This document shows positions 6,001-22,740 of a DNA stretch of 64,000 nt, piece by piece. The stretch lies in NCBI GenBank assembly GCA_049322615.1, contig JBMORX010000010.1:89416-153415 (forward strand), written 5' to 3'. The notes beneath the pieces are model-generated. The model saw only the letters and a list, made by a program, of their open reading frames with translations. It had not been told where the DNA came from and searched no databases. How positions within the stretch are numbered: position 1 is the stretch's first letter; each line of letters begins with the position of its first letter. The position numbers were made by a program, and so were the translations under genes. This stretch comes from Patescibacteria group bacterium (lineage in GTDB: Bacteria > Patescibacteriota > Microgenomatia > CAYGWK01).

Positions 6001-6843
6001 AAAAGTGCCTGAAGTTGACCAAATCTTGGGCGAGGCAGAAGCGATAATTAAATTACCTGCCGGATTAATGGCCGGGACAGTTCGGACCGTCGCCCCCATG
6101 GTCGCCGTCGGCTCGGCATTGGTAGCTGAAGCCAGAGGAAATCCTTGCAACGTTTCCGCGTTTAAGGCATAACCGACAGTGGCGATTTGAATTCTTGGAG
6201 TGGCTTCGGAGTCTGAACCAACGGTTATCCCAAGCCAGACCGAGGCGTTTTCCGAAAAAACCGAAGAGGCAATCGCCCCTCCGCAATCAGAGCCCAAAAT
6301 GGTGTTAAAAATTCCATCCTCATCGGGGTCAATTGAGCAGGTGCCCGAATCCCAAAGAGTATTCCCGCCAGAGGAGGCATCATAAAGTCTAAATCTCATG
6401 TTGGTGGCGGTCGTAATCGGAGTATTTGCCGAGTCAGTCAGCCTGCCCTGAAAAGAAAGATAGCGGTTGGGGACAACCGGGGCGGCCGGATAGGCAAGTT
6501 TTTCCGGAGCCTTTTGGATAAACTGCTGGTAAATGCCAAAGCCTAAAGCCGCCAGAAAGATGATTAAGATTAGAAAGTTTAAATAAGTGAAGTAGGGAAG
6601 AGCACGGTAGGCGCGAAGCGGAAGCTTCGCTTTAGAAATTAGTAATTTGTAATTAGTAATTAGAGAAGCCTTTTGGATAAAAGGATTCTCTTTAAGGTAT
6701 CCTTCTCTCACTGCCCAGGAAAAGAACTTTCGCAGCGAGGATTCTTTTCTTTTAAGGCTTTTGGCAGAGGCCCCCCGCATTGCCAGGTATTGGCGGAAAG
6801 TTTTTAGGGTATTTTTATCTATTTTTTGCCAAAAATTAGTCAT
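1..6843 (-). CDS. Giant surface protein (>2,280 aa), partial: the C-terminus lies beyond the window start. Reading from its N-terminus, the domains are a phage-integrase N-terminal SAM-like (core-binding) domain, a transmembrane helix, and a long extracellular region of tail-fibre-like GNVGIGTTSP repeats. It carries two Hint/intein insertions.
   Basis: Start ATG at 6843..6841 overlaps the TGA of the upstream gene (ATGA). I translated the minus strand from 6843 to about 6430 (MTNFWQKIDKNTLKTFRQYLAMRGASAKSLKRKESSLRKFFSWAVREGYLKENPF..., then the TM helix YFTYLNFLILIIFLAALGFGIY), and 4500..660 and 420..1 continuously without stops. The recurring GGCAACGTCGGCATCGGGACGAC (GNVGIGTT) codons at 204, 690, 2397, 4512 and 5115 are all in the same frame relative to 6843. 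The ORF track misses it, probably because no stop lies inside the window. Confidence 0.78.
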   Translation of the reverse strand, partial: MTNFWQKIDKNTLKTFRQYLAMRGASAKSLKRKESSLRKFFSWAVREGYLKENPFIQKASLITNYKLLISKAKLPLRAYRALPYFTYLNFLILIIFLAALGFGIYQQFIQKAPEKLAYPAAPVVPNRYLSFQGRLTDSANTPITTATNMRFRLYDASSGGNTLWDSGTCSIDPDEDGIFNTILGSDCGGAIASSVFSENASVWLGITVGSDSEATPRIQIATVGYALNAETLQGFPLASATNAEPTATMGATVRTVPAINPAGNLIIASASPKIWSTSGTFQIRGQALSIVTDTGTNGNIAIAPDGSGVLNLTLSGGTGNVISATDANLGSSGGREANTLLYGSVANNNTNLNLLKLESGSTPSPKFTVDYSGNASAAGILRANTTGSYFTGDITVSGGDITGAGGVSLDIGEQSASYIVSSAGISVGGGTTYYINSSGTGNLNALTLAGNLTLNANVASNLIPSSGNTYDLGSTSLYWNNLYVNNIYGGSSGTSGYWTKTSGVIYPNNTYESVAIGGTATSSAKLYFEGTTGNASMSGTLTIGQGQTIRPAYGPLQLAYKSGADAWTTGMVMTEQGYVGIGTTNPGQKLDVLGSIQAAGHILPSGANRHLGLSTSHWSSLYVDYFRHSDSDNYFIGPAAYGEWIIKGEGDATHNAVTLSDYTTGKGLSILGNGDTYISGNVGIGTTSPGSKLQVAGDITPEATGTRNLGSSSLYWNALYANNIYSPSSGTSGYWQRNAQALSPTNITDDVLLGATATSSALVKLTGTSGNNSWINTGNVGIGTTGPSKKLHVAGECVAEDSLVPVAQCQMSNVKCQMSNKQIKDVKPGDRVLSLNENTGEFAWQKVEKTLDKGIQEVYELKTESGKRIETTGNHPYLTPDGWKKVIFLKEREEIAVANLTHLEEGNIESNHPENNRQDINNSLNTHNSSLFQAKVGINNYNTTHNHSNTVGNQNIISNHRPSLLKSEANFKNNIQEEIEIKEAITSFIPNVLANKGAITPAESQATAPLVKNSEYTLGSPFNSPIDNHSTTSKLGDVKPHHQVPFSVQGADPVNPQHEPYTNSIKKANAKEYSGVKWEKIVSIKPAGKKHVYDLQIANTANFVANGIVAHNTYIANDLTLAEDATISGTLALGPQVQAYAGTCDASSEGKMYYDNAQDEYYYCDGSSWKAVASGASGVSGSGTQNYLPKWSTSSSLTDSIIYETGGQIGIGTTSPLAKLDVSGDASVSGNLYLASGGAVRPRNAGLLTLDYKSGVNAWTPALTVNNLGNVGIGTTAPSEKLDITGNLRVNGNGTDNYLELMRDPNVDFRIISTDNPVYGLAFKNQQSGAYPFRINSSATSDSLVLSSGNVGIGTTSPGAKLEIAGTAWLRGATGTTGLFVNSSGNVGIGLTNPGSALQVAGDITPEATGTRNLGSSSLYWNALYANNIYSPSSGTSGYWQRNAQALSPTNITDDVLLGATATSSALVKLTGTSGNNSWINTGNVGIGTTSPAQKLHVEGQCVTGDSLLPIVATEDTKILRDYDTKSENKKEKSPNISFVQIKDIKGGELVLSLNEKTGKIEPAKIKGLLDMGVKPVYRLTTEDGRQIRTTGNHPYLVRNWQDLLKESNIKQEQSDYGQTKSNSGSGVNIENINFVFGAHNNFLKTNATPKENIPSNTSVVKTNNFLLPFSLAKLGTISTTPNQPADKLTNRSDTIDSQIGSTPLIKNNLSEENSFVNAEWTKVIYLRPGMEIATADTSDGDPKGLLRGGGIGSRVKWAKIASIEYVGEEQVYDIEVEGTHNFVANGIVAHNTYILNDLTLAEDATISGTLSLGPQVQAYAGTCNAAAEGKMYYDNAADEYYYCNGSSWKAVASGASGVSGSGTQNYIPKWSTSSTLTDSILYETGSQIGIGTTSPLATLDIAGSASASGNLTFRGSGTAHLINLYDNGSLQIGNSVGGGTATPAFVVTSAGNIGIGTTGPTYKLEVAGTGYFNGGGIYASSGFLSVSDGNPVLTYSSRKAFLPNAAIITADSAVGAASIPLIIKGTSGQTGDLTQWQNSDGGVLSVVDKSGNVGIGTTSPSQKLDIAGNATISGTLGFGPNAPAYAGTCNASNKGKQYYDGTDDKMYYCNGTSWIVMGTSSSLSGTGTQNYIPKWSGSTTLTDSIIYETGSQIGIGTTSPLAKLDVSGDASVSGNLYLASGGAVRPRNAGLLTLDYKSGVNAWTPALTVNTVGNVGIGTTGPGSFKLNVDDPGAGSPSKYPLRLQNSLGAETLDFEIETVAVGRHEILSSGSLAFGTGGT
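1468..2340 (-). other. Intein / Hint-domain insertion 1 (291 aa) within the giant protein. It runs from Cys1 (codon 2340..2338) to the terminal Asn of VAHN (codon 1470..1468), with Thr at +1.
   Basis: Translation reads ...NTGNVGIGTTSPAQKLHVEGQ|CVTGDSLLPIVATEDTKILRD...TTGNHPYLV...VYDIEVEGTHNFVANGIVAHN|TYILNDLTLAEDATISGTL. Textbook intein blocks are present: A (C-x-x-x-D-S-L), B (TTGNHPY) and F/G (NFVANGIVAHN), followed by T. The central linker has no LAGLIDADG or HNH motif. Confidence 0.75.
3508..4455 (-). other. Intein / Hint-domain insertion 2 (316 aa), at the homologous site of the duplicated module. It runs from Cys1 (codon 4455..4453) to Asn (codon 3510..3508), with Thr at +1.
   Basis: Translation reads ...GIGTTGPSKKLHVAGE|CVAEDSLVPVAQCQMSNVKCQMSNVKCQMSNKQ...TTGNHPYLT...HVYDLQIANTANFVANGIVAHN|TYIANDLTLAEDATISGTL. 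The central region is N/S/H-rich and low-complexity, with no endonuclease motifs. Confidence 0.75.
4387..4421. repeat. Perfect 5x TGACATT heptanucleotide tandem repeat inside intein 2 of the giant gene. It encodes the QMSNVKC repeats.
   Basis: Sequence at 4387-4421 is tgacatt x5. Seven is not a multiple of three, so a +/-1 unit change shifts the reading frame. Confidence 0.9.
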
Positions 6844-7490
6844 TTCTTCCTTTCTCGAAATTCGAGCCTTTTTTTAAAAAGATTTTCCGAATAGCCGCCT
6901 TCTTCGATAAATTTTCGTTCAAGAGAGCGGATCATTTGGTCTAAAAGATAATTTTCTTTAGAAATAAGAGTAATCATAAGGTTGGCGAAACTCTCGGGAG
7001 AGCCAGTCCAATAAGACCAATTAGTCAAATTAGACTCATTGGCAGAGACGCGGAGAGAGCGGATCTTTAAAACCCGGGGGTCGTTTTTCTCCCAAAGCGT
7101 AAGCCTCCTAAATCTTAAGAAATCCCGATAGTCTTCTAAAAGTTCTCCATAACTTGCCCGAGCCACCCCAGTAAGTTTTATGTTCATCTTTAGGCTTTTT
7201 TCTAGCGAGGCTTCGACGATATTTTGTTTTCCCGAGCGGTCGGCTTGGGCCATTTGCTCAACCGTCCGGCGGTATTTTGGTTCTGAAAGATATTTTTGGC
7301 AGAACTGGTGGTTAAGACTGGAGATAACCACTGCCTGTTGATAAACAATCAGGCTTTCATAACCCCCAGGCTTTGAGTTAGACTTATTTGACTTATTGGT
7401 CCAATTGGTCATATAATTAAAGTGCGGGCCACCAAAAAGCGGCAAATTTTTGGTCCCCCCAAATTTTTGTGCAGCCCTTGGGGCCCGCAC
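6840..7490 (-). CDS. Four-helix-bundle family protein with a C-terminal suffix (216 aa). It is one of three paralogs of this type.
   Basis: The ORF contains TVEQMAQADRSGKQNIVEA...YGELLEDYRDFLRFRRLTLWEKNDPRV... and ends EGGYSENLFKKRLEFRERKK. This matches the ORFs at 23619..24104 and 30651..31241 (both ending ENLFKKRL). Recognition as the CPR-expanded four-helix-bundle (S23 IVS-like) family is from memory. Confidence 0.55.
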   Translation of the reverse strand: MRAPRAAQKFGGTKNLPLFGGPHFNYMTNWTNKSNKSNSKPGGYESLIVYQQAVVISSLNHQFCQKYLSEPKYRRTVEQMAQADRSGKQNIVEASLEKSLKMNIKLTGVARASYGELLEDYRDFLRFRRLTLWEKNDPRVLKIRSLRVSANESNLTNWSYWTGSPESFANLMITLISKENYLLDQMIRSLERKFIEEGGYSENLFKKRLEFRERKK

Positions 7491-7494
7491 CCTT

Positions 7495-7986
7495 TTAAGT
7501 TGCTATCTCGGCCCAAGTTAAGAACGCTCTTATATCAGAAAGATAGTTTTTGATAGTGTTAGAACTAGTCTTTTCAGCCTCCAGATGCTTTCTAAACTCT
7601 TCAAGAATTTTTTCTTCTCCCGTTATTTTATTGCTAGATTGCTTAATTGCTACATTGCTTAATTGCTTGGTGGGATTTTCCGAGATCCATGCTTGGGAAA
7701 GACAAAATTTGCCAAAGGTTCGCAGAGTCGAAAGCCGACGATTGACGGTTGAGAGGGGAAGGGAATTGGCTAAAAGAAAACTTTTGTAACCCAAGATGAA
7801 TTCCTCCTTAAGGTAAAGCCTCATCAACTGGGGTTCATCGTCGTTGACCGGAAGATTCCGACTTCTCAAAGTTAATTCTAACCAGCCAAGAAAGTGGTTT
7901 AAATCAGAAAGATAATTTCTGACGGTTATCGAAGAGAAACCTTGAAGTTTAAGATAAGTTTTAAAAGAATTGGGCAGGCTCGACAT
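7495..7986 (-). CDS. Protein made of two tandem phage-integrase N-terminal SAM-like (core-binding) domains with no catalytic domain (163 aa).
   Basis: Two repeats of the XerC/D N-terminal pattern: NSFKTYLKLQGFSSITVRNYLSDLNHFLGWLEL and EEFRKHLEAEKTSSNTIKNYLSDIRAFLTWAEIAT. No R..HxxR..Y catalytic region follows. Confidence 0.5.
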   Translation of the reverse strand: MSSLPNSFKTYLKLQGFSSITVRNYLSDLNHFLGWLELTLRSRNLPVNDDEPQLMRLYLKEEFILGYKSFLLANSLPLSTVNRRLSTLRTFGKFCLSQAWISENPTKQLSNVAIKQSSNKITGEEKILEEFRKHLEAEKTSSNTIKNYLSDIRAFLTWAEIAT

Positions 7987-8689
7987 AAATTTAAAATTTA
8001 AAATGTAAAAAGTAAAATTGCACTTAAGGCAAAAATCAAAATAGCAGTTAACATTTCGGCAATTTGATAGCCAATTCCATTCGTGTCAATTCGTGTTGGC
8101 GACGCAACATTGTACGCCATCCAAGGTCTTAGGCGGTCTGCGCGTCGCTCATTCGTGTTAATTCGTGTTAATTTCCGCAAAAACCTCCAAAGACCCTTAC
8201 TAGGCTTAAGATTATACAGATTATACATACATTTACTACTATAAAAGAATTCTTGACTGGTTGTCAAGAGGCATTTTGATGTATTTAGAATAGGTCAATT
8301 TTTGCCCAAAATTAACATTTTCATAAAGTTTTCACTGGATAAAAATGGTACATCTGTCCCTAACTTAATATATCATAATATAACTTTGGGGAGGGAGAAG
8401 TTGATGATATTATTTGATTGATTTAATCTAAAATTCTAAATTCGAAATCCTAAATTCTAAACCCTCCTTCGCTTACGCTTCGGAAGGGCAAGCAAATTAT
8501 TTCCTTAAAAAAAATTGCCGTGCCACTCCGAAGCCCAAAGGGCGTAGGGTGGTTTAGAATTTAGATATTAGTGCTTAAAATTTTTCTACTATTTTTATCA
8601 CTTCGCTGCGCTCAGTGCTAGAGAAAAAACAGTAAAGATTTGCTCGGATTTATAGGCTCATTTAGCAAATCCGAATGCATCCCGCCTTC

Positions 8690-8787: not shown

Positions 8788-9207
8788 ATGATCAAGAGGA
8801 TTTTAACCATTATTATTTTAGTTCTTCTAATCTTTGGGCTGATAATTGTCGTTTATCTGGTCCGTCAGCAAACAAAACTGCCTGGTCGAGCGACTACCCC
8901 CGGAGTTTTATCTTTAGAAAACTCTTATCTTTTTGCCTCGCCTCTGGTTGCTCGGGTTGGGGGTGGGGAAAAAATAACCATTTCCGCTTTTGTTTTGTCC
9001 GATCAGGGTTTGGGAATTCCTGGCGAGAAAGTGGTTTTATATTCTGCTCCCGCCCTTCAGGCTCTGACGATTCGGGATGAGACCGACTCTCGTGGTTTGG
9101 CGGTTTTTGAAATCACCTCGCAAACTTCCGGCTCATTTACTCTTTGGGCTACTGTGGCTGGAAAGGGGCAGATAAAACAACAAGTGACGGTTACATTTAC
9201 ACCGTAA
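8788..9207 (+). CDS. Small membrane-anchored protein with a beta-rich (Ig-like?) ectodomain, hypothetical.
   Basis: 139-aa ORF with an N-terminal TM helix (ILTIIILVLLIFGLIIVVYLV) and a GAGGA RBS. The overlapping ORF at 8745..9080 is in another frame and lacks an RBS. Confidence 0.45.
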   Translation: MIKRILTIIILVLLIFGLIIVVYLVRQQTKLPGRATTPGVLSLENSYLFASPLVARVGGGEKITISAFVLSDQGLGIPGEKVVLYSAPALQALTIRDETDSRGLAVFEITSQTSGSFTLWATVAGKGQIKQQVTVTFTP

Positions 9208-9218
9208 ACTAATCTTAA

Positions 9219-9611
9219 ATGTCAAATCTCAAAACTCAAAACCAAAACTTAAATCTTAAATCTAATTTAAAATATAGAGCATACAAATTTTCTTTAATGG
9301 TCATAAAATTTGTTAGTGGTTTTCCCGAAAAGAAGATTTACTGGATAATAGGTGATCAGCTTCTAAGAGCAGCCACTAGCATCGGAGCGAACATAATTGA
9401 GGCTCAAGCCTCGAGCTCAAAAAGAGAATTTATAAAGTATTACGAAATTGCTCTTAAGTCTGCCAATGAAACAAAATACTGGCTTTGCCTGTTAAGAGAT
9501 GGCAATTTAGTTAACAAAGAGGAGGTAGGCAGGATTTTAAAGGAGGCAGAAGAGATAAGTAATATGCTCGGCTCTAGCCTTTTAACCCTTAAGGGAAAGA
9601 AAAAGTTTTGA
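9219..9611 (+). CDS. Four-helix-bundle protein (classic short form, 130 aa).
   Basis: Contains QLLRAATSIGANIIEAQASSSKREFIKYYEIALKSANETKYWLCLLRD, which matches the S23 IVS / four-helix-bundle family pattern from memory. Confidence 0.65.
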   Translation: MSNLKTQNQNLNLKSNLKYRAYKFSLMVIKFVSGFPEKKIYWIIGDQLLRAATSIGANIIEAQASSSKREFIKYYEIALKSANETKYWLCLLRDGNLVNKEEVGRILKEAEEISNMLGSSLLTLKGKKKF

Positions 9612-9621
9612 CATTTTACAT

Positions 9622-10569
9622 TTAGTTTTGCCATTTGCGATTTGCCTTTTGAGTTTCTCTTCTAAGCATCACATAAGCAATAATGGCGATTATCAAAATC
9701 TCGGTTATTATAATTCCCTCGGGCGTAGTTAAAAACCTGACAAGCCACCAAAACAAGTTTGTCAGAAAAGCGATTATTTTCTCAATGAGCATTCTCCACC
9801 AAGACAAAACATCAAAAACCAAAGTCGTGCTTTTGGGAGAAGGATTGTTTAAGAAAATTGAGCCGACAAAAACCCGATTTTTGCCTAATTCTTCTGTTGG
9901 GAGATTAAATTGATAAAAACCATTTTGGTCGCTTAAAACCTTTGGTTTGGGAACTTCGGCGGCCAGGGCAGGAGTAATTAGTAATTGGTAATTAGTAATT
10001 AGGGGAAGACGGAAGCGGGCTTGCCCGCCCAAAGTCGCTCCGTGAGTCGTGTTCGAATAGAACCCAAAGACGAACGGTAAGACTGGGCGGGGTTTTTCTT
10101 CGAAAAGATAGGGGACAACCTCGGAATTTGGGGTGGTGTAGCCTTGGGCGGGAACTGTTTCTCCTTTGGCGATTTTTCCCTTCGACAAGCTCAGGGTCGG
10201 CGGCATGACGACCTCTTTGATTAAGATATCAAATTCCGGCGGTGGAGGAGCAAGACAAAGAGGGTGGGAGGAAATGTTTGAGACATCGGTGGCGATTAGA
10301 CAAAACGGTGTCAGGGTTCGGGGGAGGGCGATTCTGAAGGTAAACTTGCCTTGGTCATCGGCAGTGGTAATTCTTTTTATTACTTGTTCCATCGTCAATT
10401 CAACTTGGGCAAAGGGAGAAGTCCAGCCAGTCAGCTCAAGCCACCACCAGTAAGGAACAGTGGCCGTCACCTGGACGGATTCAGTCGCCAACGCCGGTCT
10501 ATTAAAGAAAGAAGAAAGGAGAAAGAAGAGAAAAGAAAGAAGTAATAAACAAAGTTTGTTGCTTCGCAC
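9622..10569 (-). CDS. Hypothetical surface or membrane protein with an N-terminal signal/TM segment and a C-terminal TM anchor (315 aa).
   Basis: N-terminus is MRSNKLCLLLLSFLFFLLSSFF (the same MRSNKLCL start as the rplA ORF extension). C-terminus is ...IITEILIIAIIAYVMLRRETQKANRK. Confidence 0.5.
   Translation of the reverse strand: MRSNKLCLLLLSFLFFLLSSFFNRPALATESVQVTATVPYWWWLELTGWTSPFAQVELTMEQVIKRITTADDQGKFTFRIALPRTLTPFCLIATDVSNISSHPLCLAPPPPEFDILIKEVVMPPTLSLSKGKIAKGETVPAQGYTTPNSEVVPYLFEEKPRPVLPFVFGFYSNTTHGATLGGQARFRLPLITNYQLLITPALAAEVPKPKVLSDQNGFYQFNLPTEELGKNRVFVGSIFLNNPSPKSTTLVFDVLSWWRMLIEKIIAFLTNLFWWLVRFLTTPEGIIITEILIIAIIAYVMLRRETQKANRKWQN
10023..10097 (+). ncRNA. Conserved structured RNA motif, copy A. 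A GC clamp stem (GCCCGCCC/GGGCGGGG plus a U-tract) encloses the core CGCTCCGTGAGTCGTGTTCGAATAGAACCCAAAGACGAACGGTAAGAC. It lies antisense inside ORF 9622..10569.
   Basis: The core shares a 15-nt identical block (GTGTTCGAATAGAAC) and flanking similarity with the 5' leader motif at 57128-57199. The inner helix co-varies (CCGT/ACGG here versus CCTT/AAGG there). Confidence 0.4.
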
Positions 10570-10577
10570 TTTCTTTT

Positions 10578-10596
10578 GACAGGGTCCGTCCCTGTC
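10578..10596. repeat. REP-like palindromic hairpin GACAGGGTCCGTCCCTGTC, copy 1, flanking the IS200-like tnpA.
   Basis: Perfect 7-bp stem with a TCCG loop. Identical copies lie at 10790-10808 and 11301-11319. Confidence 0.8.
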
Positions 10597-11281
10597 ACCC
10601 TTCGATTATAAGATTTCCCAGCATCTCTCTGGGATCTTCTTGATAATCTTCAATAAAACTTTGATAGGAGAGAATGTCTTTTAGCGAGGTGCGGCGAGCA
10701 GTCTTAAAGAAAGAGAGAATTGGTTCTGGATTAATCCAGATGGCTTTTTTCTTTCCTAAATAGTAGGGGTAACTTGAGTATGGCCAATTGACAGGGTCCG
10801 TCCCTGTCAACTCGGCGGGGTTAAGGTGAAGATAGCGAGAAAGATGAAGAAGATACGGTTCTTCAAGGACGAGTACCGCTTTGTAATTTCCCTGAAAAAG
10901 ATAACCATTTCGTTTGTATTTGCGGTTAAAATACATAGCATAATTTGTTAGGAGTCGCCTTAAAAGTTTAGTCATGCCGTTGGAGGTCTTTTGCGTCAGA
11001 AGAAGATGGAAATGGTTTGGCATAAGACAATAGGCGAGAAGTTGTAACTCTTGGCTTAAAGAGGAGGAGAAATCCCTTATTCTTGTTGGTTTAAAACCAG
11101 TAATTTCTCCAAGGGGATGGGTAAAGTTTGTTTTTGGGGGCGAAAGATAGAATTTTAAGAAATGGAGGAAAACTCGGTAGTCTTGGTCGTCAAGAAAAAT
11201 ATCTCGTTTTTCAATTCCGCGATTATAAACATGATAGTGGCCGTTTTCAATGTAGACCTTAATGCGGTTTTTGGCAGGCAT
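10595..11281 (-). mobile_element. tnpA: IS200/IS605-family (Y1 HUH, RAYT-like) transposase gene bracketed by cognate hairpins.
   Basis: 228-aa ORF with HYHVYNRG, the HUH motif MPNHFHLL, and GYLFQGNYKAV (catalytic Tyr). GACAGGGTCCGTCCCTGTC hairpins lie just outside both ends (10578-10596, 11301-11319), and a third lies in frame inside the ORF (10790-10808, encoding TGTDPV). Confidence 0.8.
10790..10808. repeat. REP-like hairpin copy 2 (inside the tnpA coding sequence).
   Basis: GACAGGGTCCGTCCCTGTC. Confidence 0.8.
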
Positions 11282-11300
11282 TCTTTTCTTAAGAATATCT

Positions 11301-11319
11301 GACAGGGTCCGTCCCTGTC
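11301..11319. repeat. REP-like hairpin copy 3.
   Basis: GACAGGGTCCGTCCCTGTC. Confidence 0.8.
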
Positions 11320-11328
11320 AAGGGGGAT

Positions 11329-12321
11329 TTAGGTGGTTTTCTCTTTGGGGGTCTCTTCTTCAAGTTCTTCTTTTTCTTTTTGGCGCCGGCGGAGAAAAAG
11401 GACAATAAGAATAGCGATGACAATCGCCAAGACTATCGCCAGGGCGATCCTGACTGGAAAAACAACAAAGTAGAGGGTGGCAAGCAAAACCTGACCGGTC
11501 GTTCCATAAGAAGCCGATAAATCTGCCCGATAGCGACCCAAAAGATATTTAGCGTTCCAGGTATTTTGATAGATAAAAGAGGCACTGGGAAAAATATTTC
11601 TTTCCTCAAGGGGCATAACCGTGGTTACTTTACCCAACATATTTCTGACCGTAATCGTCCCCTTTGGGGCAAGATGCAAATCAGAGAGATTTAAAATCTC
11701 CGTGGTGAACTTAACCGGTCCAAATTCTAAAAACTTTGGGGCGTCGAATAATTTGACTAAAGCCCGTTCTGTTACCGGTCCTTCAACCGTAAAATAAACC
11801 AAAGTTCCAACCACTTGCTGAATAGCGGTACCGGCCCCCGTACCCGCCCCAATTCGGGGGGGAGTCCCTTTTGACTGATATAAAACTCCGGCATAATGTC
11901 CTCCAGGTAGGGCATCCAAAGGAACGTTAGCGGAGACAACGATATTAACTGTTTGTTTTGGAGCAACTGCCACTGAAGTTGGGGAAAGTCTAATCCAGGA
12001 AGAAGCCGCCCAGCGACCAGAAACTTGGGCGCCGACAAACTCCGGAGTTCCGGCGGTATCCTTGACAATAAAATCCTTGGCAACGACGGCTAGGTAGGCA
12101 GTCTCGTCTCCTTCATTTCGAAATTGAATAGTTTTTTGAACAAACTCTCCGGGCTTGACTTTGACTTCTAAACGAGGAGGAATGGCGGTAAAAATCTGGG
12201 TCTGCGCCCGCGCGAAGCGCGGAATAAGCAAATAAGCAAATAAGCAAATGACAAATAAGCCAATAATAAGAAATTTGAAATTTGAAATTTGAAATTTGAA
12301 ATTGATTTGTTTATTTGACAT
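11329..12321 (-). CDS. C-terminally membrane-anchored surface protein B1 (330 aa). It has a signal peptide, a beta-rich ectodomain, a C-terminal TM helix and a charged tail.
   Basis: MSNKQINFKFQISNFKFLIIGLFVICLFAYLLIPRFARAQ... then IPPRLEVKVKPGEFVQKTIQFRNEGDETAYL... and a C-terminal ALAIVLAIVIAILIVLFLRRRQKEKEE. It is a paralog of 14433..15452. The architecture is reminiscent of DUF916-type anchor proteins of WxL loci (from memory, unverified). Confidence 0.6.
   Translation of the reverse strand: MSNKQINFKFQISNFKFLIIGLFVICLFAYLLIPRFARAQTQIFTAIPPRLEVKVKPGEFVQKTIQFRNEGDETAYLAVVAKDFIVKDTAGTPEFVGAQVSGRWAASSWIRLSPTSVAVAPKQTVNIVVSANVPLDALPGGHYAGVLYQSKGTPPRIGAGTGAGTAIQQVVGTLVYFTVEGPVTERALVKLFDAPKFLEFGPVKFTTEILNLSDLHLAPKGTITVRNMLGKVTTVMPLEERNIFPSASFIYQNTWNAKYLLGRYRADLSASYGTTGQVLLATLYFVVFPVRIALAIVLAIVIAILIVLFLRRRQKEKEELEEETPKEKTT
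12271..12298. repeat. 4x AAATTTG heptanucleotide tandem repeat within codons 6-16 of B1, followed by three 8-nt TTGCTTAT units that form the signal-peptide core.
   Basis: aaatttg x4 at 12271-12298 encodes the NFKFQISNFKF segment on the minus strand. Confidence 0.85.
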
Positions 12322-12339
12322 TTGTATTATTTGTTTATT

Positions 12340-13785
12340 CTAAAAGGTGGCTGTGGCAATATAAATTACATAATTCTCATAATCTCCCGCCGCCTGGGTT
12401 CCCGAGACAATAGCGCGGTAACAAACATAAGCCTGATCTAAATCAACTGGGGCACTCGCCGTCATGATTTGTTGAGCCGTTACTCCAAAAGGTCGGGCCA
12501 TAAAAGTGCCGCCGGTGTTATACCTTATGGCGCTTGGCACTGGTGTTCCGGTTTTATTCGCCAGGGCATAGCCAAAACCTTTATTGGTGGTAGAGGTCCA
12601 GTCGCCGGTCGTCGTTACCGTGCAGGTTCCACCGCAGGTGGTGTCGGCAATTGTCGGTGAACCTGACAAGCTCCAGGCAGTTAGGGCGGCACTTTCGGAA
12701 GCAGTCACCGAATAGCCTCCAACCGCATTAGTGGAAACCGACAAGACTTGGGCGGCATCGCTAAAGTCGGTGCTGAGAACGGTTCCTAGGGGAACAGTAT
12801 TAGGAGTGGTGGCAACGTCCGTGGTTTGACCGCAGACACTTTGACTGGCGGTTACCCCTGTCAGCATAAAAACCAAAGTGGGAGCAACGGTGGCGGTCAC
12901 CCGGACTGCCTCAATAACACTGACTTTTCCGAGAGTTTCGTCAACAGTAGCATATGATTGGTCAACTCCGTAGAGATGTCTAGTCCTGAAGGTATAGGTG
13001 TCGCCTGCGCCGGGACCATGTGAGGCTGAATAGCCAGAAGGGGAGGGATTGATAATTTTGTTACCTGCAGCCGTACCAATGATCATGGTCACCTGGGTCG
13101 CGCTCTGTCCGCTACCGGTATAGCGGCACTCAAAGGAGTGATAGTTAGTGCCGCCGACAGTGACGCCTGAACGAGTGGCGGTACCAGTACCGCTGTCGGC
13201 GAAAGTAATGTTTGATCCACCACCTGAGCAGGCAACGGTTGGGAGAGAGCCGGTGACAACATCAAAACCATTTTTATCAGGCAGACCATCTCCAGTTTCA
13301 GAGTCGGAAGCGGCGGGAATTAAGACCCTGAAGGCGCCATTAGCGATTTGTGAGTAAGGAGTAAATCTGAAGGTGTGAATCGCGGAAACGGTAGAAATCA
13401 CCGGATCGCCGTCTGAAGCGGCATTTGATAAACCAGCAGCCAAAACGACCCTGGTGTCGCTTTCAAGGGTTTTAACGGTCGTAATCGTGGCACCAGTACC
13501 TGAGCCGACCCTGATGCCATCATTAGTCATTAAAGTTCCCGAGCCAGTCGAGGTGTTATTAGTACCAAGACCAGAGGTTTTTAAAGTGATAACCGCCGAA
13601 CCAGCCGCTACCGCCCCACTAAGCTCGCCCCTAAAGGAAAGCCGACTATTAGAGATGGTGTCGGAAACTGAAGTTAATTGAGCGGAGTCAAGTTTCTTGG
13701 GAAACAAAAAAGCCAACCCGTAAAATTGGGCAGCCAGAAAAATCGCTAGACTAATTTTCGCGGCTAGTTTTGGTTTTTTAAACAT
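12340..13785 (-). CDS. Secreted Thr/Gly/Ser-rich surface protein A1 (481 aa) with a conserved C-terminal motif SGTQAAGDYENYVIYIATATF.
   Basis: Signal peptide MFKKPKLAAKISLAIFLAAQFYGLAFLFP and a long G/T/S-rich beta-type sequence. The C-terminal ~25 aa are nearly identical to the C-terminus of 15474..16268. Confidence 0.6.
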   Translation of the reverse strand: MFKKPKLAAKISLAIFLAAQFYGLAFLFPKKLDSAQLTSVSDTISNSRLSFRGELSGAVAAGSAVITLKTSGLGTNNTSTGSGTLMTNDGIRVGSGTGATITTVKTLESDTRVVLAAGLSNAASDGDPVISTVSAIHTFRFTPYSQIANGAFRVLIPAASDSETGDGLPDKNGFDVVTGSLPTVACSGGGSNITFADSGTGTATRSGVTVGGTNYHSFECRYTGSGQSATQVTMIIGTAAGNKIINPSPSGYSASHGPGAGDTYTFRTRHLYGVDQSYATVDETLGKVSVIEAVRVTATVAPTLVFMLTGVTASQSVCGQTTDVATTPNTVPLGTVLSTDFSDAAQVLSVSTNAVGGYSVTASESAALTAWSLSGSPTIADTTCGGTCTVTTTGDWTSTTNKGFGYALANKTGTPVPSAIRYNTGGTFMARPFGVTAQQIMTASAPVDLDQAYVCYRAIVSGTQAAGDYENYVIYIATATF

Positions 13786-13849
13786 TTTGCTGCTGTCAAT
13801 ATATACTTTATGTTAAGTATCACTCTATGTCAATATCTACTTTATGTCA

Positions 13850-13930
13850 AGACAAGATAGGTTATCAGGTAATCAGGGTATCAGAGATAGGATATCAGGG
13901 CATCTGGGTATCAGGAAATTTTTCTCCTAA
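13850..13930. repeat. Array of about six direct TATCAGG-type units with ~10-nt period (iteron-like).
   Basis: ggttatcaggtaatcagggtatcagagataggatatcagggcatctgggtatcagg. The inverse units (cctgat) are arrayed on the other side of the gene, at 14335-14425. Confidence 0.6.
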
Positions 13931-13945
13931 TCTCTGGATATCCTT

Positions 13946-14326
13946 TTATTGTTTTTCATTCTGTTGTTTCTCCCTGATATACCTGATATAAGCATTGATT
14001 CCTTTAATTAGTCCTTCATAGCGGTCAACTAATTCCTGACTTTTGGTGGTGGCAAGATATCTTTTGCCCTCCATTTTTCTTAAATGATTCTGGGTTTCTC
14101 CTGCTTCGCGTCTGGCTAAATAGAAAGATTTAATTTTATCGTTGTAGTAATAAGTGGAATACCCTTCAGCAATCGCATCGGGCACTGAGCCAGAAGAACG
14201 CTCTGCCTGGTCTGCTAATTTAAACTTTTCCTCTCTGGGCAGAGTTTTTGTAATGGTATGGACCTCCAACATCAGCTGATAAGCTTCCTGCCAAATTCTT
14301 AATTTTTCGAAAGTCGGCTTATTCAT
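13946..14326 (-). CDS. Four-helix-bundle protein (126 aa) flanked by the TATCAGG arrays.
   Basis: Contains ADQAERSSGSVPDAIAEGYS...FYLARREAGETQNHL, which matches the four-helix-bundle pattern. Confidence 0.6.
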   Translation of the reverse strand: MNKPTFEKLRIWQEAYQLMLEVHTITKTLPREEKFKLADQAERSSGSVPDAIAEGYSTYYYNDKIKSFYLARREAGETQNHLRKMEGKRYLATTKSQELVDRYEGLIKGINAYIRYIREKQQNEKQ

Positions 14327-14334
14327 GACTTAGA

Positions 14335-14425
14335 TTATTGGGTAATCAGGTTATCGGGGCATTAGGGCTTTCTCCTGATATCCCGCTATCCTGATTTTCT
14401 ATCCCTGATCTTCAGATTCCCTAAT
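14335..14425. repeat. Array of TAATCAGG/TTATCGGG units followed by inverted CCTGAT units.
   Basis: gggtaatcaggttatcggggcatt...cctgatatcccgctatcctgattttctatccctgatcttcagattccc. Confidence 0.55.
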
Positions 14426-14432
14426 ATCCTTC

Positions 14433-15452
14433 TTAGTATCTCCACATTCTCTTTTTAATCAATAAAACTATCGAGACAGCAATAAGAATGGCTAAAGATA
14501 ACTTTCCTGGTAGCGCCAAAAAAGAAGTGACGGCTGAGAGAGTCTGACTCCCTCCATCTTCTTCTAAACTAAATTCGACCTTGGCGCGGTAAGGACCTAA
14601 TAAGAAAGAAGTGGGAAGGGCGAAGTGCCGTGCGTCGCCAGAGGCTATGCCGGCGGCGCGAGAAGTGGGAGAAGCACTAGGAGTGGCAACTTGGATTTGT
14701 CTAATTGAACCCACCAAAACATTATCAGGAATAAGTTCTTGTTCATATTTTTGACCTAAAAGCCCTTCGATTTTAATTTTTCCAAAGGGTTTCCAAAATG
14801 CTCTTCCCGTATTTTTAACTCTCAAGAGAAACTCCGGTTTATCAAAAGAATCGATGATGGGAAGTGCGAAGTGTGAAGTGCGAAGTGTGAATTCGACGAT
14901 TTCGCCCCTTTTAACTGGCTTGCCCGAGCGGGAAACGGTCAGTAAGATGTTTGAGCCAATGACGCCTGCTCCCGAAGTAGTTGTGCCACCACCTCTTTCT
15001 TTTGGCTTTGTGGAGAAAAGAAAAGTAAAATAATAATCATCCTCACGAGTATTCTCGGGAATTTTTATTCGCAGGATTATTTGTTTTGACTCGCCTGATC
15101 TTAAAACAAAAGGTTGACCTAAAGCCAGATCGGCATTCTCAAAAGAAAACCAGCCTTTCGGAGGTCCGACCTCCTCGGAGGTCGGACCTCTTAAGGAAAC
15201 GTTTCCCAGTTCATCTCCCGGCTCAAAAGGCAAAATTTGGGTGTTAATAATGGTCTCGTCCCCAGAATTCTCAAGTTGATAGGCTTGAATGATTGATTTT
15301 CCAGGCATCATCATGACCTCTAATAAAGGGGGGTAGATGGAAAGGGAAAAGGTTTGGGCCCGCGCCTCTGGCGAATGAAAAAATAAAAATGAAAATATAA
15401 AAATTACAACTAAAAATCTTAAAATTTTTAATTTTACATTGTAATTTTTCAT
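14433..15452 (-). CDS. C-terminally anchored surface protein B2 (339 aa), paralog of B1.
   Basis: Signal peptide MKNYNVKLKILRFLVVIFIFSFLFFHSPEARAQ, then LSIYPPLLEVMMMPGKSIIQAYQLENSGDETI (the same motif as B1), and a C-terminal TM LSLAILIAVSIVLLIKKRMWRY. Confidence 0.6.
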   Translation of the reverse strand: MKNYNVKLKILRFLVVIFIFSFLFFHSPEARAQTFSLSIYPPLLEVMMMPGKSIIQAYQLENSGDETIINTQILPFEPGDELGNVSLRGPTSEEVGPPKGWFSFENADLALGQPFVLRSGESKQIILRIKIPENTREDDYYFTFLFSTKPKERGGGTTTSGAGVIGSNILLTVSRSGKPVKRGEIVEFTLRTSHFALPIIDSFDKPEFLLRVKNTGRAFWKPFGKIKIEGLLGQKYEQELIPDNVLVGSIRQIQVATPSASPTSRAAGIASGDARHFALPTSFLLGPYRAKVEFSLEEDGGSQTLSAVTSFLALPGKLSLAILIAVSIVLLIKKRMWRY

Positions 15453-15473
15453 TTTTAACTTTTAACTTTTAAT

Positions 15474-16268
15474 TTAGTAGGTTGGTGTTGCCACAAAAAT
15501 AATATAGTTCTCATAATCTCCCGCCGCCTGGCTTCCCGAGATATTGACTTTATAAGTAACCGTTCCCACCCTATTTTTGCCCACCTGGGAACTTGACATG
15601 ACTATGCTTGGGTCCTCTGAGGCTGCCAAAGAGGGAAAAGGACGAAAATAAGTAGAGTTGACAAAAGTCGCCGGAATATCTTGTCCTTGCATATTATAGC
15701 CAAAACCATACTTAGTATTATCTGTCCAAGGCTGGGCCGTGGTTTCATCGCAGGTTTGGGCTCCACCATTACAGGTAGTATCGGAAATAGTGGCTGTTCC
15801 TGCCAGGGTTTTTAAGGTATCACTTTCTCGGGCGGTCACCTGATAGCCGCCGGCGCCACCGGCGGAAACAGTTAAAGTATTGGTTTGGGTTGAGGGTGTC
15901 CCTGGAGTTAAAGTGCCAAAATCAATAGATAAATCAGAGATTGTAAACCGGAAAGGGATGATGGACTTAAGATACCAAAAACCGCTTCTTACCTTGTATC
16001 CAGTTGAAGTGTAGAGTCCGGGAGCAGTCTGCCCGCCGGTGACCCCAAGTTTATAACTTGAGGAAGTGGGTAGCCCGGCGCCCATATTGACATTGCCCAT
16101 CTGGATTTTATAAGAATCGGAAGATAAGTTCTCGGCGCGAGCGCCTCGAGTAATAAGCAAATAAGCAGAGCTTGTTGCTACGCAATAAGCAAATAAGCAA
16201 ATAAGCAAATAAGCAAATAATTTGAAATTTGAAATTTGAAATTGATTTGACATTTGCTTATTTGACAT
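15474..16268 (-). CDS. Secreted surface protein A2 (264 aa), paralog of A1, with the C-terminus SGSQAAGDYENYIIFVATPTY.
   Basis: The N-terminus MSNKQMSNQFQISNFKLFAYLLICLFAYCVATSSAYLLITRGARA is encoded largely by tandem 7/8-nt repeats. The body is Thr/Gly-rich. Confidence 0.6.
   Translation of the reverse strand: MSNKQMSNQFQISNFKLFAYLLICLFAYCVATSSAYLLITRGARAENLSSDSYKIQMGNVNMGAGLPTSSSYKLGVTGGQTAPGLYTSTGYKVRSGFWYLKSIIPFRFTISDLSIDFGTLTPGTPSTQTNTLTVSAGGAGGYQVTARESDTLKTLAGTATISDTTCNGGAQTCDETTAQPWTDNTKYGFGYNMQGQDIPATFVNSTYFRPFPSLAASEDPSIVMSSSQVGKNRVGTVTYKVNISGSQAAGDYENYIIFVATPTY
16221..16241. repeat. 3x TTTGAAA heptamer tract in the A2 5' coding region. It is flanked by 4x AATAAGCA octamers (16170-16210) and GACATTT heptamers (16244-16280) around the start codon.
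   Basis: Read directly at 16170-16280. Confidence 0.85.
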
Positions 16269-16291
16269 TTGACATTTGTAATATTTGTATA

Positions 16292-17008
16292 TTATCCTTC
16301 TATCTTTTCCTTCAGCCTCTCTCCTAGTTTCAAAAGTCTTTTAGCGCTCTCATGGATTTTCTGCAAATTTTCTTTTTGAAACTGGGAAAGCCGACCAACA
16401 TCAGCCAGTAAATTTGAAGAGGTATCTAAAATTTTTAAGACATGCTCTTTAAAAGTAAGACTAATCCATAAAAGAGTATCTTCTTCTTGCTGACCGACTT
16501 CCTTCTCAAGAGACTGTTTTTTAAGACTTAAAATTTTAATTAATTCCTTTTCCTCTAGCACTTTCAAATACTGTCTGCCAAAAAATAAAGCCAAAGGAGT
16601 AATCAGTAAAAGTCCAATAACCTGGAGGAAGGCGTTTAAATTTACAACTTGTTGATAAAAGAAAAAACATAAAGCCAGGGCAAAAATTAAAGTGACCAAG
16701 GGATCAAAAAGTAAAGAAAGACCAAAAAGCAAAATATAAATTAAGAAAAAGAGGGGAGAGGAAAGCCCGCCGGTCTGGCTGACCAAAAGTAAAGTGACCA
16801 AAGAAAGAATTAGTCCGTCTATTGCCATGGTTAAGCGTAATTTTTTCGCGGCAAAGAGATGATTTAAGAAATAGAAAATAACCAAGATGGCAATCAACTG
16901 AAGAGTGAAGGCTTGAAGGATTGGGCTTTGGGTCCAGGCAAAAGTTAAAAAAACTGCCGAGAGCAAAAAGAGAAGATGAGTCAAAAATTGGGCAGACATT
17001 AATACCAT
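16292..17008 (-). CDS. Polytopic membrane protein with a C-terminal coiled-coil-like tail, hypothetical.
   Basis: 238-aa ORF with about five hydrophobic helices and then a K/E-rich heptad-like tail. The overlapping ORF at 16704..17120 is in another frame. Confidence 0.45.
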   Translation of the reverse strand: MVLMSAQFLTHLLFLLSAVFLTFAWTQSPILQAFTLQLIAILVIFYFLNHLFAAKKLRLTMAIDGLILSLVTLLLVSQTGGLSSPLFFLIYILLFGLSLLFDPLVTLIFALALCFFFYQQVVNLNAFLQVIGLLLITPLALFFGRQYLKVLEEKELIKILSLKKQSLEKEVGQQEEDTLLWISLTFKEHVLKILDTSSNLLADVGRLSQFQKENLQKIHESAKRLLKLGERLKEKIEG

Positions 17009-20269: not shown

Positions 20270-20905
20270 ATGGAAGAGATTGATGTTAAATTAACTAACA
20301 AGGATATTGAGGGAAGATTTAATTGGGAGGCTTTCATTGAGAAACATAAGATTTCCTTAATTTTTGGACTTTTGGGATTGATTTTGGTGGGAGGTGGGTT
20401 CCTGCTTATTTTAAAACTGGGTCAGCCGGAAGATAAGATCGAGATTATTTCTTCGGAAACCTCCTCGGACACAATCCTGGCTGATATCGAAGGAGCGGTG
20501 CAAAAACCCGGAGTTTACAAACTTCAAACTGGCAGTCGACTTCAGGATTTGCTCGTGGCTGCTGGTGGACTCTCTTTAGAGGCGGATAGAAACTGGGCTG
20601 AGAAAATGCTTAATCGAGCGGAGAAGTTGACTGACGGAAAAAAAGTCTATATTCCGAAAAAAGGAGAAGCCCCACTTCGCCCTTCGGGCTCCGTTGGGGG
20701 CACGGGAAGCATTGGCGAGGGTAAGCAGGTAAACATTAATACCGCCAGCCAGTCCGAGCTGGAATCTCTTCGGGGAATCGGACCGGTAACGGCTCAAAAA
20801 ATTATTGATAGCCGTCCATACCGAGAAGTATCTGACCTCTTGACAAAAAAGATTTTAAAAAGTAATGTTTATCAGAGAATAGAGAATCAGTTAACAGTAT
20901 ACTAG
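20270..20905 (+). CDS. comEA: ComEA-like competence protein (membrane anchor plus C-terminal helix-hairpin-helix DNA-binding domain).
   Basis: N-terminal TM, then VNINTASQSELESLRGIGPVTAQKIIDSRPY (HhH). Confidence 0.75.
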   Translation: MEEIDVKLTNKDIEGRFNWEAFIEKHKISLIFGLLGLILVGGGFLLILKLGQPEDKIEIISSETSSDTILADIEGAVQKPGVYKLQTGSRLQDLLVAAGGLSLEADRNWAEKMLNRAEKLTDGKKVYIPKKGEAPLRPSGSVGGTGSIGEGKQVNINTASQSELESLRGIGPVTAQKIIDSRPYREVSDLLTKKILKSNVYQRIENQLTVY

Positions 20906-20918
20906 AATTGGAGATTAG

Positions 20919-21068
20919 TGGCTCGGGTAGGAATTTGTTGTTCGGTTTCGTCATGGCATCCCCCTTCGGGGGTCGCCCTCGGATTCAAGGTTTCAAAACT
21001 CAAGTTGTGTTCCGGAGTCCTCGGGCTTGCCAGGTGAAACCTTCACAAAAATTCTACCCTCGCCCTTA
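20919..21068 (+). repeat. R-element copy 1. This is a ~150-nt structured intergenic repeat with a closing helix P1 (GGGTAGGAATT/AATTCTACCC), the conserved TTGTTG.TCGGTTTC and AAACTCAAGTTGTGTTCC boxes, two variable hairpins, and the tail CCTCGCCCTTA.
   Basis: It aligns with the copies at 22306, 22529, 32621, 35128 (divergent) and 39995 (partial). The helix pairs differ in sequence but stay complementary. Confidence 0.7.
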
Positions 21069-21137
21069 TATGTTATGAATTTTTGCGTTTCTGCTTATTT
21101 TGCGTTTTTGCGTTTGCAAAGGAGGTGAGAAATATGT

Positions 21138-22301: not shown

Positions 22302-22305
22302 CTTT

Positions 22306-22456
22306 GGCTCGGAGACGAACGTTTTGCTTGAGTTTAGAGATGACGTCCGATTAAATCGGACACGGCCTGCTTAGATGAAGATTTTAAGACTCAAGTTGTG
22401 TCCCGGGAGGCGCAGGCCTGTCACATTAAACTCTGCGCAAAAGTTGTCTCCTCGCC
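22306..22456 (+). repeat. R-element copy 2 (P1 is GGAGACGAAC/GTTGTCTCC).
   Basis: ggctcggagacgaacgttttgcttgagtttagagatgacgtccgattaaatcggacacggcc...aaactcaagttgtgtcccgggaggcgcaggcctgtcacattaaactctgcgcaaaagttgtctcctcgcc. Nearly identical to copy 4 at 32621. Confidence 0.75.
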
Positions 22457-22488
22457 ATCTTTAGAAGAAAAATTTATTTAATTTTTAT

Positions 22489-22519
22489 CTTATTTTGTCT
22501 GGGTTGTAAAATTGTTTTC
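22489..22519. repeat. 31-nt direct repeat, copy 2.
   Basis: Identical to 22261-22291. Confidence 0.85.
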
Positions 22520-22528
22520 GTAGGGATG

Positions 22529-22740
22529 TGGCTCGGGAATGAATTTGTTGCTTGGATTTAGTGATGGCTCCCGCCAATTAGGCGGGACCAGCTCGCGACT
22601 GGGTAATTCGAAACTCAAGTTGTGTTCCAGGGGGTCGCGGCTTGGAACGTCAGACGTTCCTTGCCACTTAAATCCGGCGCAAAAATTATTCCCTCGCCCT
22701 TAATTTCTTAATATCTTAGTCTCTTAATATCTTTTATTTT
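22529..22740 (+). repeat. R-element copy 3 (P1 is GGGAATGAATT/AATTATTCCC) plus the 3' tail CCTCGCCCTTAATTTCTTAATATCTTAGTCTCTTAATATCTT, which runs up to the ATG at 22741.
   Basis: Shares the same boxes. The tail is shared with copy 4 (32770-32811), which ends at the mreB ATG. Confidence 0.7.

Follow-up and report, generated by a model that had tools for sequence, protein, structure and literature searches.

What do two neighbouring gene pairs, each encoding a secreted protein and a membrane-anchored partner, do in a bacterium of the Microgenomatia? The question is raised by a 64,000-nucleotide (nt) stretch of DNA from a Patescibacteria group bacterium (GTDB lineage Bacteria; Patescibacteriota; Microgenomatia; CAYGWK01; assembly GCA_049322615.1, contig JBMORX010000010.1, positions 89,416 to 153,415), hereafter the window, in which the four genes A2, B2, A1 and B1 are all hypothetical proteins in the NCBI annotation. 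A preliminary description of the sequence had seen in these four minus-strand open reading frames (ORFs) two secreted/C-terminally anchored pairs, which are indeed present, and had read them as a duplicated, possibly variable surface module. We conclude that the region is probably the Microgenomatia version of the Pam pilus operon of the Candidate Phyla Radiation (CPR), an usher-less system that would work by donor-strand exchange. The genes of the operon, including the downstream gene X, are as follows (TM, transmembrane; Ig, immunoglobulin).

15474-16268, minus strand: A2, 264 aa, short single-domain PamT-like putative tip pilin; signal peptide, small conserved N-terminal subdomain and Pam pilin C-terminal domain, without the donor-linker motif
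14433-15452, minus strand: B2, 339 aa, membrane-anchored putative chaperone partner of A2; signal peptide, two Ig-like domains (predicted from the paralog B1), C-terminal TM helix and basic tail
12340-13785, minus strand: A1, 481 aa, long two-domain putative shaft pilin; N-terminal beta-sandwich, linker and Pam pilin C-terminal domain (residues 328-481)
12877-12918, minus strand: residues 290-303 of A1 (VIEAVRVTATVAPT), candidate donor/linker strand
11329-12321, minus strand: B1, 330 aa, membrane-anchored PapD/WxLIP-like putative chaperone partner of A1; Gly-rich low-confidence hairpin at residues 154-167 (candidate complementing strand), TM helix at residues ~290-313
9622-10569, minus strand: X, 315 aa, candidate pilus terminator/anchor, PamR-like in role; signal peptide, N-terminal strand, Ig-like domains and C-terminal TM helix
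10453-10479, minus strand: residues 31-39 of X, strand SVQVTATVP

The secreted A proteins are related to Pam pilins

Two Pam filaments of Ca. Mycosynbacter amalyticus (Saccharimonadia) were solved by cryo-electron microscopy (cryo-EM) in a 2026 preprint (bioRxiv 10.64898/2026.03.03.709456). The system described there has no usher and consists of the pilins PamA, PamB and PamE, whose C-terminal domain takes the linker of the adjacent subunit; the single-domain tip protein PamT; PamC and PamD, which are PapD/FimC-like chaperones retaining a C-terminal TM helix; and PamR, an anchored terminator with an extra N-terminal strand (10.64898/2026.03.03.709456). The NCBIfam models NF058579 and NF058581 derive from this preprint, which had already reported PamA-like matches in Microgenomatia (10.64898/2026.03.03.709456).

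Both A proteins matched NF058581 (CPR_Pam_pilin_C) over nearly the whole model, A1 with an E value of 7.8e-6 (model positions 3-148 of 148, 26.1 bits) and A2 with 2.7e-8 (positions 5-148 of 148, 34 bits). A2 also matched NF058579 (CPR_pilus_PamT) at positions 10-241 of 241 (E 6.2e-12, 45.4 bits). These matches extend to the relatives of the two proteins: Pam_pilin_C was found in 57/66 members of the long family, to which A1 belongs, and in 42/42 members of the short family of A2, 39 of which also matched PamT (best E 1.2e-15). A1, A2 and B2 had no match in direct scans with Pfam, and the long and short A families had none either.

The similarity of A1 to A2 is confined to the last ~160 aa (40% identity, E 1e-23), and the short pilins as a group align to positions ~320-479 only of the hidden Markov model (HMM) of the long family. 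As the preliminary description had noted, both proteins are rich in Gly, Thr and Ser (together 33-37%) and share the motif SG[ST]QAAGDYENY... at their C-termini. These ends (...YIATATF in A1, ...FVATPTY in A2) have no LPXTG motif, hydrophobic stretch or basic tail; with no LPXTG signal, the structure is not a sortase pilus.

The AlphaFold2 (AF2) model of A1, with a mean predicted local distance difference test score (pLDDT) of 91.2, has two beta domains, one at each end of the chain, that are joined by a coil linker. The top matches of this model in a Foldseek search of the PDB were subunits of chaperone-usher pili, namely SafDAA (E 4.5e-7), CsuE, CfaE, CfaB and PsaA. Searches of PDB sequences with A1, A2 and the long-A profile returned no meaningful match. 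A1 thus has the make-up of a Pam shaft pilin with a conserved linker strand, which it would donate to a neighbour, and A2 that of a single-domain tip protein without one.

The anchored B proteins resemble PapD-type chaperones and WxLIPs

B1 is similar to B2 from end to end (25% identity, E 9e-14). They contain the motif ..PP.LEV...PG...N.GDET and terminate in a hydrophobic helix followed by a charged tail, both as initially described. In the AF2 model of B1 (pLDDT 89.6), two beta-sandwich domains lie between a signal helix and a C-terminal helix (residues 290-323), and the sole disordered part is the Gly-rich hairpin at residues 154-167. The model resembles the WxLIP of Enterococcus faecium and chaperones of the PapD/FimC type, with WxLIP as the best two-domain structural match (WxLIP structures, PDB 9i1y/9i25). 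The B proteins therefore combine the PapD/FimC-like two-domain fold with the C-terminal TM helix that characterizes the Pam chaperones. The family is large, with 15,920 clusters at 50% identity (E<=1e-3), and the orthologous group of B2, with 281 database matches in Patescibacteria, is always found directly 3' of the short pilin.

The sequence relationship to WxLIP lies in the first domain. A Pfam scan of B1 gave noise-level Ig/TM matches only, and neither B1 nor B2 itself matched PF06030 (WxLIP_PGBD, equivalent to DUF916) at E<=1. In the B family as a whole, PF06030 was matched by 40/62 members at E<=0.1 and by 14/62 at E<=1e-4, a level at which no other family was found (best 2.6e-8). The top match of the B-family profile among PDB sequences was EfmWxLIP1 (E 0.005). 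We then aligned the B profile to three WxLIPs from Enterococcus, Lactococcus and Lactiplantibacillus plasmids. The hhalign probability, 94% for the full-length proteins, fell to 25% for the ectodomains once signal peptides and TM helices had been removed; domain 1 against WxLIP domain 1 gave an E value of 1.2e-4 and a probability of 54%, and domain 2 showed no sequence similarity to the DUF3324 domain of WxLIP (PF11797). In view of this drop upon trimming, we lowered our claim to one of distant N-domain homology: judged by sequence comparison, the N-domain of B appears to be a distant homolog of DUF916, which is not the same as membership of the WxLIP family, and the protein as a whole has a WxLIP/PapD-like layout. 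The Gly-rich hairpin of B aligns with the hairpin of WxLIP, which in AlphaFold predictions inserts as a strand into the incomplete sandwich of the WxL domain (PMC10599100).

Some members of the B family have unusual forms. Proteins of 640-800 aa containing a B region, considered as possible pilin-chaperone fusions, turned out to be tandem chaperone-chaperone fusions, and that candidate was rejected; P0402, P0419 and P0440 are natural fusions of this kind, in which both chaperone units are complete and have a TM helix. Separately, the chaperone has no signal peptide in 14/46 tip-pilin/chaperone pairs from other genomes, compared with 1/75 shaft-pilin/chaperone pairs, and most such chaperones start -1 to +5 nt from the pilin stop codon (examples are L038:5462-6301, L005:5615-6451, L041, L056, L072, L077, L044 and L008, where L numbers denote related loci). 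The window's own B2 has a signal peptide.

A candidate donor strand in the shaft pilin and in the anchor protein

The linker of A1 (residues 290-303) is the most conserved stretch of the long-pilin family, with E292, V294 and A298 invariant and V296, V300 and P302 nearly so. In the AF2 monomer, residues 292-303 form a coil in which pLDDT is lowered to 73. A segment that is conserved and predicted to be unstructured in the monomer fits a strand that would become ordered only inside the groove of a neighbouring subunit, and the combination of conservation and disorder agrees with what the preprint reports for PamA/B.

The distribution of the corresponding motif follows the roles we assign to the proteins. 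Its strict form, V[RK][VI][TS]A[TS][VI], was found in 58/84 of the long pilins and in 1/46 of the short ones. Of the X proteins, 31/62 have a looser form among their first 90 residues; no B protein (0/133) has this form, and 13/1658 other ORFs do. In the X protein of the window, the sequence reads ...PALA up to the predicted signal-peptide cleavage site and TESVQVTATVP directly after it.

Homologs of X (62 ORFs) lie nearly always 0-100 nt downstream of the last B gene; in this family, CarboxypepD_reg matched 10/34 and Big_6 7/34 proteins, and a C-terminal TM helix is present. In its layout, its position and its donor-like N-terminal strand, X is a candidate for the role of the PamR-type anchor, which has an N-terminal strand, tandem Ig/fibronectin type III (FnIII) domains and a TM helix. 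The possibility that X is a paralog of B was rejected (hhalign probability 5%). In some related loci, a protein of ~690 aa follows the last chaperone in place of the ~300-aa X (L068:9055-11151, L082:8929-11028 and L083:4283-6334); near the N-terminus of these proteins, around residue 50, there is again a donor-like strand, V.V[ST]ATVPD.

The proposed tip and shaft modules are conserved in Microgenomatia

A scan of GTDB species representatives yielded 308 stretches that encode a B relative. For counts of architecture, the best 80 of the 308 were mapped with the A- and B-family HMMs, which together with two further loci gave 82 Microgenomatia loci. The order short A-B-long A-B was found in 40 of the 82, A-B in 14 and A-A-B in 10, and the remaining loci are mostly contigs whose upstream end is missing. 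Where a contig extends upstream of B, the next gene on the 5' side is always an A gene, so that the expected co-conservation of secreted and anchored partners holds in every such locus. In 17 loci the two modules are split by opposite-strand housekeeping genes (e.g. pyruvate phosphate dikinase). Apart from A and B, related loci encode only X and Big_1/LamG proteins. At L004, the most closely related locus (B1 74% identical), the four pilus genes and X follow one another directly.

These data change the picture of a duplicated module. The paralogy of the two pairs is real, but it is old and partial, and it is the standard architecture of related genomes rather than a peculiarity of this one. 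Because the four-gene order recurs in related genomes, the duplication is not a recent event; what had been taken for a variable, duplicated module is an ancient, conserved arrangement of a putative tip module followed by a shaft module.

Many of the GTDB records that contain this CPR-type locus (L004, L006, L007, L012 and others) bear the title 'uncultured Gammaproteobacteria' or 'Pseudomonadales'. The titles of these metagenome-assembled genomes are probably wrong, and they could mislead a taxonomic survey of the system.

A proposed assembly pathway and the points that weigh against it

Taken as a Pam-type operon, the locus suggests the following pathway. All pilus components would be exported by Sec and assembled at the outer face of the cytoplasmic membrane. 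The C-terminal Ig-like domain of each pilin would lack one strand, and at the membrane a dedicated chaperone (B2 for A2, B1 for A1), built of two Ig-like domains and held in the membrane by its C-terminal helix, would fill the groove of the pilin with the strand of its Gly-rich hairpin. A2 would be an acceptor only, having a groove and no donor strand, and as such would begin the fibre at its distal tip. A1 would be both donor and acceptor and would be added one subunit at a time, its linker strand VRVTATV entering the groove of the previous subunit. X, predicted to be a donor only (N-terminal strand VQVTATV, no groove, C-terminal membrane helix), would cap the base and tether the fibre. Pam filaments have been seen by cryo-EM in Mycosynbacter; here we infer polymerization from the genes. 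A role in episymbiont attachment, raised in the preliminary description, is plausible only by analogy with the work on Mycosynbacter.

The likeness to Pam covers several parts of the system. The C-terminal domains of the pilins are homologous; A2 is a PamT-like tip candidate with a single domain, and A1 is a putative shaft pilin with two domains, whose linker is conserved. The two putative chaperones are PapD-like and have a C-terminal TM helix, one anchored protein has an additional strand at its N-terminus, usher and sortase are lacking, and the system is restricted to CPR. The operon differs from Pam in being interrupted here by a four-helix-bundle cassette and a transposase element, described below, and in its X protein, which has Ig domains of the CarboxypepD_reg/Big_6 type and no demonstrated RbmA/FnIII similarity.

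Several observations weigh against a Pam-type pilus. The NCBIfam scores of 26-45 bits are far under the curated cut-offs of 55 bits for Pam_pilin_C and 240 bits for the PamT equivalog, each of which is an operational annotation threshold and not a biological feature; for this reason we call the locus a divergent Pam-type member, not an equivalog. No Pam-specific model is matched by the B and X proteins, the A1 fold has no specific match among the PDB structures searched, which included no solved Pam structure, and the TM-scores of its Foldseek matches are low. The strand-motif pattern was defined post hoc and is to be taken as a hypothesis, and the pairing of strand with groove is something that we only infer. 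The locus is also more compact than Pam (T-chaperone-A-chaperone-X), with one shaft pilin in place of PamB, PamA and PamE, and no ATP-synthase genes are adjacent, unlike in the neighbourhood described in the preprint.

Relationship to WxL clusters and chaperone-usher pili

The alternative that survives best, improbable in our judgement, is a non-polymeric surface complex of the WxL type, in which B would hold secreted A adhesins at the cell surface without growth of a fibre. In the WxL (Csc) clusters of Bacillota, WxLIP consists of DUF916, DUF3324 and a TM helix, and small and large WxL proteins are encoded with it (PMC10599100). The resemblance is considerable. Like WxLIP, of whose N-domain it is a distant homolog and to which it is structurally closest over two domains, B has a signal peptide, two Ig domains, a TM helix and a long hairpin; in both systems the gene for the secreted protein sits just 5' of that for the anchored protein, and the secreted partners come in two sizes, a small one consisting of nothing but the C-terminal domain and a large one extended at its N-terminus. 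In WxL clusters, too, the anchored protein is predicted to supply the strand that completes the sandwich of its partner.

The A proteins are the weak point of this explanation. Neither a WxL domain nor W-x-L motifs were detected in them: PF13731 (WxL) matched 0/66 long and 0/42 short A-family members, alignment of the short-A and long-A families to three small WxL proteins with hhalign gave probabilities of 0.4-1%, which provide no support for homology, and in place of W-x-L the C-termini of the A proteins have GY.V.A / Y.NY.I.[FY].A. Their C-terminal domain instead matches the Pam pilin model, the founders of which are filaments solved by cryo-EM, whereas WxL proteins are regarded as peptidoglycan-bound and not as filament-forming. 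The distribution of the linker strand over tip, shaft and anchor is hard to explain without polymerization. Moreover, the second B domain has no sequence similarity to DUF3324, and an LPXTG partner is not seen here. As the WxL domain is undetected in A and DUF3324 in B, the locus is not a WxL cluster; of the likeness to WxL/DUF916 complexes that had first been proposed, the part concerning the B family stands, as a distant homology, and the part concerning the A proteins is not supported.

The locus also differs from the chaperone-usher pili of Gram-negative bacteria (Pap/Fim, Saf, CFA/I, Csu). There is no outer membrane here, the chaperone is membrane-anchored, and the donor strand would be an internal linker between two domains instead of an N-terminal extension; sequence homology is not detectable. 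No usher domain was present in the 20 locus and neighbour proteins that were scanned, and with no usher this is not a chaperone-usher system. Genes for a sortase, an usher, a signal peptidase or an ATP synthase were looked for next to the locus and none was found; the sortase or signal-peptidase partners for which a search elsewhere in the genome had been suggested do not lie among the scanned neighbours.

A broader relationship is conceivable. The Pam pilus and the WxL clusters of Bacillota could represent separate branches of a single, ancient system of monoderms, made up of membrane-anchored chaperones and strand-deficient Ig subunits, a proposal that we consider tentative and rather doubtful. 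WxLIP/DUF916 proteins may then be PapD-like chaperones, and the small and large WxL proteins the counterparts of the tip (PamT-like) and shaft pilins; WxL proteins may be assembled, or even polymerized, by donor-strand exchange; and the Pam pilin C-terminal domain may be a highly diverged WxL-type domain. WxL and DUF916 are not mentioned in the Pam preprint (10.64898/2026.03.03.709456). Our literature search found no paper linking WxL with CPR, or specifically with chaperone-usher systems, which, given its incomplete coverage, is a weak sign of novelty.

Selfish elements interrupt the operon

Two elements with their own genes lie within the pilus operon of the window, one between the tip and shaft modules and one between B1 and X (IVP, intervening-sequence protein; REP, repetitive extragenic palindrome; RAYT, REP-associated tyrosine transposase).

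13859-14430, minus strand: four-helix-bundle cassette, with the gene between arms at 13859-13916 and 14373-14430
13946-14326, minus strand: four-helix-bundle gene between the pairs, 126 aa, 23S rRNA-IVP family
13805-13850, minus strand: two overlapping sigma-70-like promoter matches, TTGACA-N17-TAGAGT / TAAAGT (consensus matches only)
10576-11320, minus strand: RAYT/REP element, with three 22-nt palindromes, TTGACAGGGTCCGTCCCTGTCA, at 10576, 10788 and 11299 (repeat family D8)
10595-11281, minus strand: RAYT gene within this element, 228 aa

The gene that separates the pairs encodes a four-helix bundle, as had been predicted; it belongs to the '23S rRNA intervening-sequence protein' family (PF05635, E 2.6e-26; TIGR02436). 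What had been described as flanking 'TATCAGG iteron-like arrays' are the arms of the cassette, a 58-nt imperfect inverted repeat (I1) of 74% complementarity. As RNA, the two ends of the cassette pair into a long stem that encloses the gene (z = -3.9). TATCAGG occurs 12 times in the window, compared with 5.7 expected, and 6/12 copies fall within 13863-14380.

The RAYT gene (PF01797, E 2e-8; NF047646, E 1.2e-9) is located between the shaft chaperone B1 and the anchor gene X, a place where relatives have 0-100 nt between B and X. In L004, B and A abut without the cassette, and neither element is present. Since the genes abut there without either of them, we regard the cassette and the RAYT/REP element as later selfish insertions that split the operon. 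The sigma-70-like matches sit in a 17-nt tandem repeat just upstream of A1 and downstream of the cassette, and the A1-B1 pair seems to have kept or gained its own promoter.

The window contains at least four genes of the IVP family. A second member (9219-9611) is enclosed by an inverted repeat and stem (9216-9624, z -2.4), and weaker members are found at 6840-7490 and 23619-24104. The two best copies have stems like those of rRNA intervening sequences, yet they lie between protein-coding genes, and one of them splits the pilus operon.

Signal peptides built of short tandem repeats

The 5' ends of A2 and B1 consist of related repeat tracts.

16130-16293, minus strand: A2 5' cassette, leader and signal-peptide codons of 7-/8-nt repeats
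12201-12339, minus strand: B1 5' cassette, leader and signal-peptide codons of the same 7-/8-nt repeats, near-copy of the A2 5' end

In A2 the arrays, at 16184-16282, are AATAAGCA x4.6 (100% matches) and AATTTGA x9.4; in B1 they lie at 12223-12303 and are GAAATTT x4.9 (100% matches) and AATAAGCA x5.6. The DNA of the two 5' ends is ~80% identical, a similarity that takes in ~25 nt before the ATG, and the proteins are otherwise unrelated. The repeat-built N-termini first described are thus real in A2 and B1, but A1 has no 7/8-nt array in its signal-peptide codons and such arrays are common throughout the window: period-7/8 arrays of 4-9 copies number 41 in the 64 kb (non-redundant; e.g. 4384-4421, 9211-9263, 10505-10542, 15423-15475 and 34753-34815), of which 13 are intergenic. 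Ten are in the first 120 nt of ORFs, eight of these in the pilus locus.

Other genomes have comparable cassettes. The tip pilin and the second chaperone share their N-termini in L019, L038, L004, L005 and L060, and the tip pilin and the first chaperone do so in L014 and L020. In L019, the segments 4695-4747 and 7965-8017 are identical at 51/52 nt and built of TATATTC units. The shared 5' sequence differs between genomes and is itself made of 7-8-nt tandem repeats. Possible explanations are gene conversion at the repeats, phase variation by strand slippage, in which units of 7 or 8 nt shift the reading frame, and a regulatory element common to the 5' ends. The shared signal-peptide cassettes could be a device for coordinated phase variation or gene conversion.

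It could be argued from these repeats that the two pairs are recently duplicated, fast-varying surface antigens, interchangeable with each other and switched by slippage in their N-terminal repeats. Arrays whose unit is not a multiple of 3 are present in the signal-peptide codons of A2, B1, B2 and X, where they resemble the leader-peptide repeats of the Neisseria opa genes, and the A2 and B1 5' ends are near-copies. We consider this explanation very improbable: the pairs diverged anciently (25% and 40% identity) and are not equivalent, one pilin being short and the other long; their four-gene order is kept in 40/82 loci from different species; and the arrays have only ~5 copies and are of a kind found across the whole window. 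Least credible of all are generic Ig-fold envelope proteins (e.g. wall-binding or S-layer-associated) that happen to be adjacent, given their strict adjacency and order across dozens of species, the specific HMM matches to Pam models and PF06030 as the only Pfam family found at E<=1e-4.

Genes around the pilus locus

The neighbours of the pilus locus are genes for leucyl-tRNA synthetase, ComEA/ComEC, arginyl-tRNA synthetase and an M16 peptidase. The ComEA-like (HHH_3/SLBB) and ComEC-like (Competence plus metallo-beta-lactamase) genes lie at 20270-23622, ~4 kb away and beyond the leucyl-tRNA synthetase gene. The scanned part of the window showed no type IV pilus genes.

On the other side, past X, a giant minus-strand ORF (<1-6873, >2291 aa) runs off the window start; repeats of ~2 kb recur within it, and a segment near 4389 is Hint/intein-like. 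Before it lie a gene for a Big_1 protein (8788-9207) and a Phage_int_SAM-like ORF (7495-7986). The same trio of Big_1 protein, Phage_int_SAM-like ORF and giant protein follows the pilus genes in L001 and L003, and it may be part of the same surface-structure neighbourhood. The Pam preprint mentions a 'tail fibre-like protein' in that neighbourhood (10.64898/2026.03.03.709456).

Implications

Two leads appear worth following, the relationship of Pam to WxLIP and the signal-peptide cassettes common to partner genes. If the link between the chaperones and WxLIP is true, it would tie the CPR pilus, which belongs to an uncultured lineage, to a genetically tractable, virulence-associated cluster of enterococci, listeriae and lactobacilli, and would suggest chaperone-type strand complementation as a mechanism for WxL proteins.

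The CPR/Patescibacteria make up a large share of bacterial diversity; their means of host contact are largely unknown, and most of their surface proteins are 'hypothetical'. On the reading favoured here, the newly described Pam pilus is present in Microgenomatia as a compact and very widespread operon that current curated models miss. At least 308 GTDB species representatives carry a relative of its chaperone, and the chaperone family comprises ~16,000 clusters at 50% identity. The proposed tip, shaft and anchor roles point to concrete residues to mutate or model.

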